This document shows positions 42,001 to 45,000 of a stretch of DNA of 62,656 bases, in pieces. A program made the position numbers. This stretch comes from a virus (lineage: Duplodnaviria > Heunggongvirae > Uroviricota > Caudoviricetes). The first letter of the stretch is position 1. The number at the start of each line of letters is the position of its first letter. The stretch lies in the IMG/VR virus record IMGVR_UViG_637000105_000002, one strand, 5' to 3'.

Positions 42001-45000
42001 CAGTACAGACCCTTCGAAGTGGAATAAGTCAACTTCACTGGACGTTACAGAAACAGGCACAGATAGTTTCGGGTTTAATTATGGTCGGTTTGTCGTACAG
42101 GATTCGATTGTTGGTACAAGTAAAGCGCATACCATTATCGGACTGTATTCGAGTACCGGAGGGGTTGATACTTCAGGGGACGAAAAGCATGTAACTATAT
42201 CCTGTCGGGTAAAAAGTGAAGTTGATAATATCGCCGTTCGTATTTTATTTGAACATTATGATGGGGAGGTAAGGACATCAATAGGAGCAGCAAACCTGAA
42301 CCTTACCACCCGCATAATTAGCAAGACAGGTCAGACAAGCCGTGTTACAGCAAGGTCTGTTAAGGATGATGCAACTGGCTGGATATTTTTTGAGGCTACA
42401 TTAAAAGCAGATACAACAGAAAATACGGTTGGTGGTTTTGTCCAGTATTCTCCGGATACAGGGCAGATGGTTACATCAGGGGATTATCTCGATGTAACCA
42501 CTCCACAGATTGAGGCTGGTACAGGCGCATCATCTTTTATTGTTACGGGGACGGCACCGGCAACGCGGGCAAGCGATATGGTGACAGTCCCAATCAAGAA
42601 TAACCTTTATAATCTTCCTTTTACGGTTCTTTGTGAGGTACATAAGAACTGGTATAAAACGCCAAATGTAGCGCCGCGTGTTTTTGATACCGGCGGTCAT
42701 CAAACCGGAGCGGGGATCGTAATGGGGTTTGGTTCATCAGGTGGGTACGACGGTTTTCCGTATTGCGATATAGGTGGTTCAGACCGACGAATAAATGAAA
42801 ATGCCGGGCTGGAAAAAATGCTTATTGGTATGCGGGTAAAGTCCGAACGGTCCACATGTGTAGTCAGTAACGGTAAGTTAAGCAGCGAAACTAAAACCAA
42901 ATGGGAATATATCCGGAGTACAGCAACCATTCGCATTGGTGGACAAACTACAGCAGGATTACGCCATTTATTTGGGCATGTGAGGAATTTTCGTCTCTGG
43001 CATAAAGAGCTAACAGATGCGCAGCTTGGGGAGGTTGTGGAGTGAGAGATTTCACGTTGCGTTTCAGTGATAAAGCAGATTTCAGGGCATTTCTCAGGAA
43101 ACTTAACTGGGAAGAGGACGAAGAGCTGCAGAATGCCGTTCTGGTTGATGAGATTGGTTTTACGTTCAGGGAGACAGATGTTTCTGATGACGGAGAACCA
43201 GAATACACGCGAAACGAAGGGTACTTTGTTAATATCCGTCTTCTTGACGATGGATTTGAGGATTCCGTGTTCCGTGAGTGGGTGGTTACACCAGAGCGCC
43301 CGCTCAGGGAGTGGTTTTAAGGATAGCAGATGGATATCACGTCGATACTTCATGCGCTTTGTGCCGTGGCGGTGCAGGTACTGGCTGGTCTTTTTACCGG
43401 AAACTGGGCTTACGGGGCGATAGCCGGTTGTACGTTCTTCATTGCGCGTGAACACACCCAGGCAGAATATCGCTGGATTGAAATGTTCGGGCATGGCAAG
43501 CGGATTAACATGCCGTGGTGGGGCGGTTTTGATCCACGTGCATGGGATGTGGCAAGCCTGATGGATTTTGCTGTGCCGGTGGTGGCGTGTCTGCTGGTCT
43601 GGCTGTTGGTTAATCGTGGGTGAAAAAGGTGAGCAGTATATGCAACGAAGGAGGAAACATCATTGCTGGCGGCATGGAAGGCATGCAGGGTGTTGCTGAA
43701 CCGTGTTGATACATCAACTGCCCCTGATATTGAGTGGCCTGTGAACCCTGTCAGAGAGTAATCATTGGGATTATGCCGCAGCACGTCGTGCGCAAGAACG
43801 TGCTGCGGCTGGATGCTATTTTTTCCCTGAAGCGGAAAACATTACTACAGTACCTTTAACCTTGGTTTTAACATTCTCGAAATGCTCTGAGAGTATATGT
43901 GTTAAGCCTTCTTCGGAATCTTTTGTGTTTGAAAAGATGCCTTTCTGATTGTAAATGCGCATCAGTTTTTGACCGAAGCTATTGTGCACAACGCCGTCAC
44001 CAAGAATTGTGGCTCCGTATAGAGTTCCATCGTCAGTTAAGGCCTGCGCCGCATTGCGTATTACACAGCTTTTTGTAGATATATTTCCAGGCAGGCAGTG
44101 AAGAAGGTAAAACATGGAAATGGAATCAAATTGACCATGTAACGCCGCGGGATAAGGATCAAAAACATCATGGCTAATTTTATGTTTAATTTTTGATTCC
44201 CCAGCCCTTGTCGATGCCGCGTTCAGGCTAGCTTCGTTCAAATCCATTAAAGATATCAGACTGCTCTCAGGTACGTGAGTAAGGTAAAACCCAGTTCCAA
44301 CGCCAATATCCAGATGGTTGTTACCTAAATGTTCCAGAAAGTGTGGAAGAAGGTGTTCCTTTGTAGGACATCCCCATGCAAGCCGATTTGATACTCCCAA
44401 AACCCACCAGTCATAAAGCTTTAGGGTAAGTGGTGTGTAAATTTTAGCCCCATCATCTGTGTTTTTTTTCATTAGTTTCACCGTATTATAGTTTTATTTG
44501 TGAATTAAATCAATTATGGCGATGAATTACAAGGGGTTAAATGCTGCCGCAGCATAGCGATATTGAAATAGCCTGGTATGCTTCGATACAGCAGGAGCCG
44601 AATGGCTGGAAGACCGTCACCACACAGTTCTACATCCAGGAATTCAGTGAGTATATTGCGCCACTGCAGGATGCTGTAGATCTGGAAATCGCAACGGAGG
44701 AAGAAAGATCGTTGCTGGAGGCATGGAATAAATATCGGGTATTGTTGAATCGTGTTGATACATCAACTGCACCTGATATTGAGTGGCCGACTTCACCTGC
44801 AGAGTAATCAACGGCGCAGGGATGATATTTTGTGCTTGAAGTGCCTCCCCGACCATTCAGATAGTCGGGGAGGGGTATTGGGATTATACGCAATCAGTTT
44901 TAGTTAAAGACCGAAGCTCTCGAAAAATCTTTCTCCAAAACCAGAATGGAATTGATTGATTTTGATAGGATCTATAACGTCGTTACCTTAAACGGCAAAA

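Follow-up and report, generated by a model that had tools for sequence, protein, structure and literature searches.

Why does an intact methyltransferase gene stand, on the opposite strand, between two pieces of a tail fibre assembly gene (tfa) at the right end of an Escherichia coli prophage, and what brought the three together? They lie in a 62,656-nucleotide stretch of viral DNA (Caudoviricetes), IMG/VR record IMGVR_UViG_637000105_000002, the whole of which is called the window here. An earlier note on this DNA had described a start-less tfa 3' remnant, an AT-rich minus-strand methyltransferase gene and a second, longer tfa fragment, and had taken the duplicated tfa ends for footprints of the recombination that captured the methyltransferase. 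That observation is confirmed, with two small corrections of coordinates, and the interpretation is in part supported. Very probably, this is an accessory (moron) locus: an intact cargo gene of the ybcY family with a promoter of its own, accompanied downstream by a tfa piece that is a fossil of the cargo's capture and upstream by a remnant left behind when the tail fibre was later exchanged.

Setting of the locus

The 2.1 kb around the locus show 100% identity to Escherichia coli CFT073 (NZ_CP051263.1), where they form the right end of a lambdoid prophage of ~45 kb integrated at potB. From the start of the window this prophage, which looks complete, carries, in order, integrase, xis, exo, dicB, replication genes, Q, lysis genes, terminase, head and tail genes, J, lom and the side tail fibre gene stf, and its end is marked by the potB stop codon at 45039. 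In CFT073, the Prokaryotic Genome Annotation Pipeline (PGAP) lists a tail fibre gene, two hypothetical proteins, a tfa pseudogene, a methyltransferase, a second tfa pseudogene and potB, with 43642-43761 labelled "tail fiber assembly protein, incomplete, missing N-terminus", a class I S-adenosylmethionine (SAM)-dependent methyltransferase at 43816-44472 on the minus strand, and a second incomplete tfa at 44634-44807. The anatomy of the locus is already known from public annotation, and gene names exist for K-12 (tfaD, ybcY, tfaX); we take tfaD'-ybcY-tfaX' to be the names of the equivalent pieces in the K-12 prophage DLP12. As a structure the locus adds little, its arrangement having been annotated before. 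The names ybcY and tfaX are also found for K-12 in published work (PMC3946193), and the CFT073 potB prophage is the 44-kb PhiPotB island of the literature (PMC3573123).

The methyltransferase gene

The minus-strand open reading frame (ORF) at 43816-44481 matches the Pfam families Methyltransf_12 at 37.5 bits (cut-off 30) and Methyltransf_23 at 28.7 bits (cut-off 27). Its motif I reads LDIGVGTG, the residues D58-x-G60-x-G62-T-G64 are invariant across 36 homologues, and the fold is of the Rossmann-like methyltransferase type; by profile, motif I and fold it is predicted to be a class I SAM-dependent enzyme, as had been proposed. The earlier note gave the gene the full length of this ORF. The ORF itself stands, while the start is probably the ATG at 44472 (218 amino acids, aa) rather than the GTG at 44481, since this Met is the start in PGAP and in 33 of 35 aligned homologues, and since the end of the predicted -10 box falls at 44485. 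The gene is indeed AT-rich, with a GC content of 41.6% where the prophage has 50.9%; in the intergenic region that precedes it GC falls to 28%, and the gene runs antisense to the late tail operon.

The gene is intact in 87 of the 88 copies examined, and 29 alleles give a ratio of nonsynonymous to synonymous polymorphism (pN/pS) of 0.09, with 4, 3 and 22 segregating sites at the first, second and third codon positions; because it is so regularly intact and under purifying selection, it appears to be a working gene. It shares 97.9% identity over its length with K-12 ybcY, both flanks being homologous as well, and is the orthologue of that gene. Of 5426 complete E. coli genomes, 3831 (~70%) contain its DNA with 95-100% identity, and it is also carried by the viable lambdoid phages ev243, 2G7b, Kati, Turner and several PhiR phages. 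This makes it one of the commonest intact prophage cargo genes of E. coli without an assigned function; purifying selection is clear, and the substrate would be a reasonable target.

A second tfa'-methyltransferase copy is found in CFT073 outside the window, at the argU locus beside ompT (NZ_CP051263.1 630062-632062). It is identical to the corresponding locus of Nissle 1917, whose methyltransferase has the same accession, WP_000742375.1, as the window copy. Deletion of the whole of PhiPotB from CFT073 did not reduce virulence in zebrafish (PMC3573123, Table 1); the second copy is still present in that mutant.

That the substrate cannot be predicted from sequence, as the earlier note had held, is borne out. 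The fold matches -- PmtA (8ys9), JHAMT (7ec0), DhpI (3ou2), Coq5 (4obw) and MM_2633 (3dtn) -- lie at 11-21% sequence identity, and the NCBIfam PmtA equivalog NF045882 scores 17.6 bits against a cut-off of 390, which places the protein outside PmtA. Phage-borne methyltransferases are often DNA methyltransferases, and an action on nucleic acid (to counter restriction, as an orphan DNA methyltransferase or within a defence system) might also be read into a match to PADLOC mad2, itself very weak (E 0.005, 13.7 bits). Such an action is very unlikely here. Among the Pfam and NCBIfam profiles no DNA-methyltransferase family was matched, and no (D/N/S)PP(Y/F) or PCQ motif was found on reading the 221-aa sequence, in line with the earlier observation that DNA-methyltransferase motifs are lacking; PADLOC gave no meaningful defence-system match for the methyltransferase or for the 88-aa ORF, orf92 and orf97 described below; and each of the homologues is a lone gene on the chromosome, unaccompanied by any partner for restriction or defence. 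At 56-67% identity they stand alone in Enterobacter, Salmonella and Yersinia, and in E. albertii a stand-alone homologue lies in an accessory island. No conserved neighbour was found at the Enterobacter, Salmonella, Yersinia and E. albertii loci, so that gene context gives no functional hint.

We infer that the enzyme would be a small-molecule or lipid/envelope head-group methyltransferase rather than a DNA methyltransferase. A more particular proposal, doubtful as it stands, is that the ybcY family methylates an envelope component, such as a phosphatidylethanolamine-like phospholipid head-group, a lipopolysaccharide substituent or another surface molecule, and so alters phage adsorption or host interaction. 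It starts from the presence of the gene in ~70% of complete E. coli genomes, the strong purifying selection on it and its constant place next to genes for receptor recognition. If this were true, the family would represent a widespread and overlooked lysogenic-conversion function, one that studies in K-12 would have missed because the K-12 copy is a pseudogene.

The cargo segment and the downstream tfa piece

The borders of the cargo are set by a Citrobacter freundii locus (L101), which has a methyltransferase homologue of 90% protein identity and which shows 91.6% nucleotide identity to window 43804-44627, with nothing shared beyond. Since the identity covers exactly those coordinates, they are taken as the cargo, an 824-nucleotide (nt) segment. 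The right arm of a hairpin falls within it, as do the methyltransferase gene with its promoter region and the opening 29 codons of a small ORF that runs divergently. No tfa-like sequence is detectable at the Citrobacter locus, and the loci of the more distant methyltransferase homologues are likewise without it.

In E. coli phages the divergent small ORF continues in frame into a tfa end, to give the 88-aa ORF at 44541-44807 on the plus strand, the tfaX' of K-12. The Citrobacter counterpart runs for 80 aa and has no family match; only its first 36-37 residues are shared with the 88-aa ORF, and the rest is unrelated. Since codons of the cargo are read in frame into the tfa end, the 88-aa ORF is a chimera. 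It matches PF02413 (Caudo_TAP; cut-off 22.1 bits, profile length 131) over residues 31-87 only (profile positions 75-131, E 3.9e-25, 89 bits). The second fragment of the earlier note, given as 44541-44807, is thus a tfa C-terminal end as stated, with the correction that only 44634-44807, about Tfa residues 132-191, is derived from tfa; the first 31 codons (44541-44633) are cargo DNA, and codons 32-88 are the Tfa C-terminal end.

Several candidate signals in this region were rejected. A MAFFT alignment that set the opening 31 residues of the 88-aa ORF against residues 32-75 of Tfa is spurious, Citrobacter having these codons with the methyltransferase and without the Tfa part. An inverted 14-nt pair is found at 43801-43814 and 44541-44554; this and a 9-nt direct GCCGCAGCA pair are put down to chance, the Citrobacter cargo border lying elsewhere (~2-3 such 9-mers are expected by estimate in 1.2 kb). 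A further observation concerns strain ESY002, in which PGAP annotates a frameshifted piece of the DinI family on the minus strand, in the stretch that separates the start of the methyltransferase from the tfa fragment (L017 4750-4829, ~window 44560-44640). At the Citrobacter locus an intact dinI adjoins the methyltransferase, and a dinI-like gene may at one time have belonged to the cargo.

Could the 88-aa ORF instead encode a small protein with a function, a C-terminal Tfa domain made divergently from the methyltransferase and, for example, interfering with the fibre assembly of superinfecting phages? Every full-length ungapped copy examined starts with ATG, the frame runs on for 82 aa or more in 72 of 77 such copies, the first 75 codons give a pN/pS of 0.23, the ORF has a PHROG family of its own (phrog_2341), and a K-12 table of SELEX (systematic evolution of ligands by exponential enrichment) results lists a promoter towards tfaX (PMC3946193). 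The proposal is nevertheless unlikely. Besides being a chimera of cargo DNA and tfa end, the ORF shows no third-position excess in its 31 cargo-derived codons (5/3/4 segregating sites by codon position), and the excess in the Tfa part (8/7/20) could be inherited or imported from working tfa genes, from which variation can be taken up; the 3' ends vary between lineages (88, 89, 101 or 110 aa), stops occur, among others in the tfaX' of K-12, and PGAP calls the ORF a pseudogene. The ORF is accordingly rated here as a probable fossil.

The upstream remnant and a probable exchange of the tail fibre

The upstream piece, 43642-43761 on the plus strand, consists of 39 codons and a stop. It matches PF02413 at profile positions 95-130 (E 5e-14, 53 bits) and aligns to residues 156-194 of intact 194-aa Tfa proteins, so that the likeness to Tfa on which the earlier note had relied is present on both flanks, and its start-less remnant is confirmed. 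As a complete tfa, which would have a start codon, an N-terminal domain, ~190 aa and a place directly after stf, neither this piece nor the 88-aa ORF qualifies; both are fragments, not working tfa genes. The two ends do form a duplication: 43642-43739, inside the remnant, and 44691-44788, inside the 88-aa ORF, make up a direct repeat of 98 nt on the plus strand in which 83 of 98 bases are identical (85%), a likeness far beyond chance. The longest uninterrupted match in it is about 20 nt.

Invertible tail-fibre segments (Gin/Cin/Pin systems) contain duplicated tfa genes, and in phage Kati a DNA invertase lies between tfa and the methyltransferase. On such grounds the two pieces might have been left by an invertible segment for host range, like those of Mu (G), P1 (C) and e14 (P), in which the methyltransferase was a passenger. 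This is hardly credible for the present locus, in which the pieces are direct and not inverted, no long inverted repeats flank the region, and no invertase is annotated anywhere in the CFT073 potB prophage.

An origin of the remnant in an exchange of the fibre is indicated by the sequences to its left. The stf gene (40982-43045, plus strand) joins a conserved N-terminal domain (residues 1-131, Pfam PF08400, E 1e-67) to an alternative C-terminal receptor-binding part, in which residues 329-530 match NCBIfam NF048003, a GTA-head-spike-fibre-like domain. It is followed on the same strand by an ORF of 92 aa (orf92, 43042-43320), which matches phrog_1361 over its full length (E 1e-40) and has no Pfam or PADLOC match, and by a hydrophobic ORF of 97 aa (orf97, 43330-43623; phrog_1443, E 6e-58), the last gene of the module. 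From orf97 there are 18 nt to a breakpoint at 43641/43642, homology to the intact tfa of ZLWT and to K-12 tfaD' starting exactly at 43642. The potB prophage of ZLWT carries lom, stf, an intact 585-nt tfa (194 aa), the methyltransferase, the tfa fragment and potB. Collinearity with the window extends over 43641-45100 (97.4%) and 40642-41370 (95%) and is lost in the interval between.

Since ZLWT is collinear on both sides only, window 41371-43640 is read as a replacement. It holds the C-terminal receptor-binding part of the fibre, swapped in from ~41371, together with orf92 and orf97; it would have taken the place of the customary fibre tip and of tfa codons 1-155, and the remnant at 43642 would be the right-hand scar of the swap. 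The swapped module, the remnant and the methyltransferase are found together in viable phage ev243, to which the stf region (40955-44765) shows 97.3% identity and in which orf92 is again present with orf97. Since the same module, with the remnant only, is carried by a viable phage, this type of fibre evidently works without an intact Tfa. One of the two small ORFs may be a chaperone for it, since the ORFs occupy the place of tfa after the fibre and the same trio of genes occurs in ev243.

Promoter, hairpin and moron character

A sigma-70 promoter-like site, TTGATT-17-TATAAT, lies on the minus strand at 44513-44485, within the AT-rich intergenic region, and matches 10 of 12 consensus positions. 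The orthologous site of K-12, TTGATT-17-TATAAC, appears for ybcY in a published list of constitutive RpoD promoters, together with an H-NS site (PMC3946193); the enzyme would then be made in lysogens, probably damped by H-NS. Between the convergent stops of tfa and the methyltransferase there is a GC-rich hairpin with a perfect 11-bp stem (43775-43809, both strands), with minimum free energies of -30.1 kcal/mol on the plus strand and -27.7 on the minus strand (z -3.6 and -4.3); none of 200 shuffles folded equally well, and it looks like a bidirectional terminator. In several strains PGAP calls a 45-aa ORF ("nucleocapsid protein" or "hypothetical protein") that overlaps the 3' end of the methyltransferase and the hairpin (L002 3919-4056, L017 3925-4062, L018 3924-4061; window ~43735-43870); this is almost certainly a spurious call.

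The promoter-like site, the hairpin, the low GC and the antisense orientation fit the methyltransferase to the definition of a moron, its own promoter and terminator and its deviant base composition being seen in silico and in the data on the orthologue. Presence in some relatives and absence from others at the same position is seen as well. The potB prophage of UTME-14 has genes for the type III effectors NleG, EspW and EspM2 in place of the methyltransferase, directly upstream of the terminal tfa fragment and potB, and its homology to the window covers 44658-45100 only, its first position falling within that fragment. In O157:H7 an intact tfa is separated from the methyltransferase by manganese-catalase and ferritin-like genes, with homology to the window resuming at 43770. 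Together with the stand-alone homologues, these findings agree with the description of the gene as cargo in the earlier note. The same note had allowed that this description would fail if the gene were a conserved core component of the tail-fibre module in related phages; it is conserved beside the module there, which goes part of the way, and it is not a core gene.

Distribution and order of events

The survey covered 80 IMG/VR viral contigs that carry the methyltransferase, 79 of which contain the sequence on the tfaX' side. In every one of these 79 the 88-aa ORF starts 68 nt from the methyltransferase start. The sequence beside the methyltransferase stop is variable: an intact tfa in 33 of the 80 loci, the aa-156 remnant with orf97 in 22 (most also with an orf92 match), an aa-163 remnant in seven, an aa-147 remnant in four, an aa-119 remnant in one, and no tfa within 120 nt in 13.

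Since it accompanies the methyltransferase in every one of the 79 loci at a fixed spacing, the downstream fragment plausibly marks the original capture. The cargo segment now sits between a tfa stop codon and an older, 5'-truncated tfa copy; this truncated copy, fused in frame to 31 cargo codons, would be the fossil of that capture and would have stayed linked to the methyltransferase from then on, the tfaX' of DLP12 being one example. The upstream copy would once have been a working tfa, until the CFT073 lineage lost the receptor-binding half of stf and the first 155 tfa codons to an incoming module with a different fibre tip and two small ORFs, 39 tfa codons being left. Since fibre modules vary on its left and cargo (methyltransferase, catalase/ferritin, effectors) on its right, the tfa 3' end appears to be a recurrent joint, and its conserved sequence could act as a linker for homologous recombination by which the one side and the other are shuffled. 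The locus would then be a clean example of phage mosaicism, in which each exchange at the tfa 3' end leaves nested tfa fossils.

The earlier note had seen in the two tfa ends the paired footprints of one capture, that is, of a single recombination in this prophage that inserted the methyltransferase in or beside tfa. Both flanks are tfa 3' ends in direct orientation and form the 98-nt repeat, and the gene between them is AT-rich and antisense, as that account would have it. That the ends are footprints of recombination is upheld; that they are a pair is improbable, and the single event is already contradicted by the ZLWT-type arrangement, in which, at the same potB site, the methyltransferase and the tfa fragment follow an intact tfa. 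The two copies are only 85% alike, yet each lies in a stretch that agrees at 95-97% with the sequence in the same position of other phages; the break on the upstream side, at 43641/43642, is the end of the swapped fibre module and not the cargo border at 43804; and the same cassette is found in the 3831 genomes and in DLP12. Because tfaD'-ybcY-tfaX' is present in DLP12 and the gene in so many genomes, the capture is old and widespread, and not special to the CFT073 potB prophage.

Some points weigh against the account preferred here, an old capture followed by a fibre swap in an accessory locus. The order of events is inferred from present-day arrangements and not from a dated phylogeny, and the reverse direction, in which ZLWT regained its tfa, can be set against it, though it is less parsimonious. 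Most of the 80 IMG/VR loci belong to prophages of sequenced isolates, and the loci are not independent samples. The basis for the promoter is a consensus match together with in-vitro SELEX for the K-12 orthologue, itself a frameshifted pseudogene. For the enzyme, the fold matches are a flat list without a specific family, and "small molecule or lipid" is a class, not a substrate.

Other features of the window

To the right of the locus, 44811-45038 is right-end prophage DNA reaching to the potB stop codon on the attR side; it is present in 931 of the 5426 genomes and adjoins potB in three loci inspected. A 1223-nt query found 818 genomes, a number in which potB prophages with and without the methyltransferase are not separated, since the 80% coverage threshold coincides with a common partial match of 973 nt. 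Just 3' of the stop of the terminal tfa fragment there is a GC-rich hairpin of 10 bp, CCTCCCCGAC...GTCGGGGAGG, at 44844-44873 (z -2.5, no T-run), which may be the end of the late operon.

Elsewhere in the prophage, an IS200C transposase gene followed by three tRNA genes (Ile, Arg, Arg) is found at 13687-14540, downstream of the Q antiterminator gene. Beyond it, between roxA and phoQ, lies an element of ~11 kb (49896-60900) with genes for an integrase, a helix-turn-helix regulator, an Icd-like protein, a primase, SSB, PerC, a major capsid protein and a head-decoration protein, and with no annotated tail genes; we presume it to be a capsid-forming phage satellite (phage-inducible chromosomal island) of the kind described for CFT073. 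An anti-adaptor gene of the potB prophage, annotated IraM (15452-15787, minus strand), is presumably the published IraL, which has been placed on the CFT073 potB genomic island (PMC4045071).

Relation to known systems

The closest counterpart of the locus is that of K-12 DLP12. Its genes agree with those of the window in order and orientation, its homology to window 43642-44787 amounts to 94.9% nucleotide identity, and it shares the promoter hexamers (TTGATT-17-TATAA(C/T)). It differs in that its methyltransferase is frameshifted, whereas that of the window is intact, and a stop codon interrupts its tfaX'; on the upstream side a longer tfa piece, of 146 aa, is fused to a truncated terminase, and the cassette is followed by appY and ompT in place of the attR and potB of CFT073. 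The papers found on ybcY give context, the promoter-table entry (PMC3946193) and a negative phenotype. A literature search for tfaX/tfaD returned unrelated acronyms only, and one for exchangeable effector loci with tail fibres, or for methyltransferases as lambdoid morons, gave no match.

Effector cargo downstream of the tail-fibre genes in lambdoid prophages of enterohaemorrhagic and enteropathogenic E. coli makes up what we take to be the "exchangeable effector loci". The position is the same in CFT073, but the cargo is a methyltransferase of cytoplasmic type and not a secreted effector. To class I methyltransferases of small molecules or lipids (PmtA and others) the likeness of the enzyme is generic; no match stands out, and no substrate can be transferred.

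The placement beside tail-fibre genes is that of the lambdoid morons of the lom and bor type and of the P2-like moron site, as with neaT in CFT073 phi-b0847 (PMC3573123). With lom, bor and neaT the methyltransferase shares an orientation against the flanking tail genes, a low GC content, a promoter-like site, a terminator-like hairpin and variability between relatives. It differs from neaT in its frequency: neaT is rare, with four matches in 170 RefSeq E. coli genomes, whereas the methyltransferase is carried by about seven in ten of the complete E. coli genomes.

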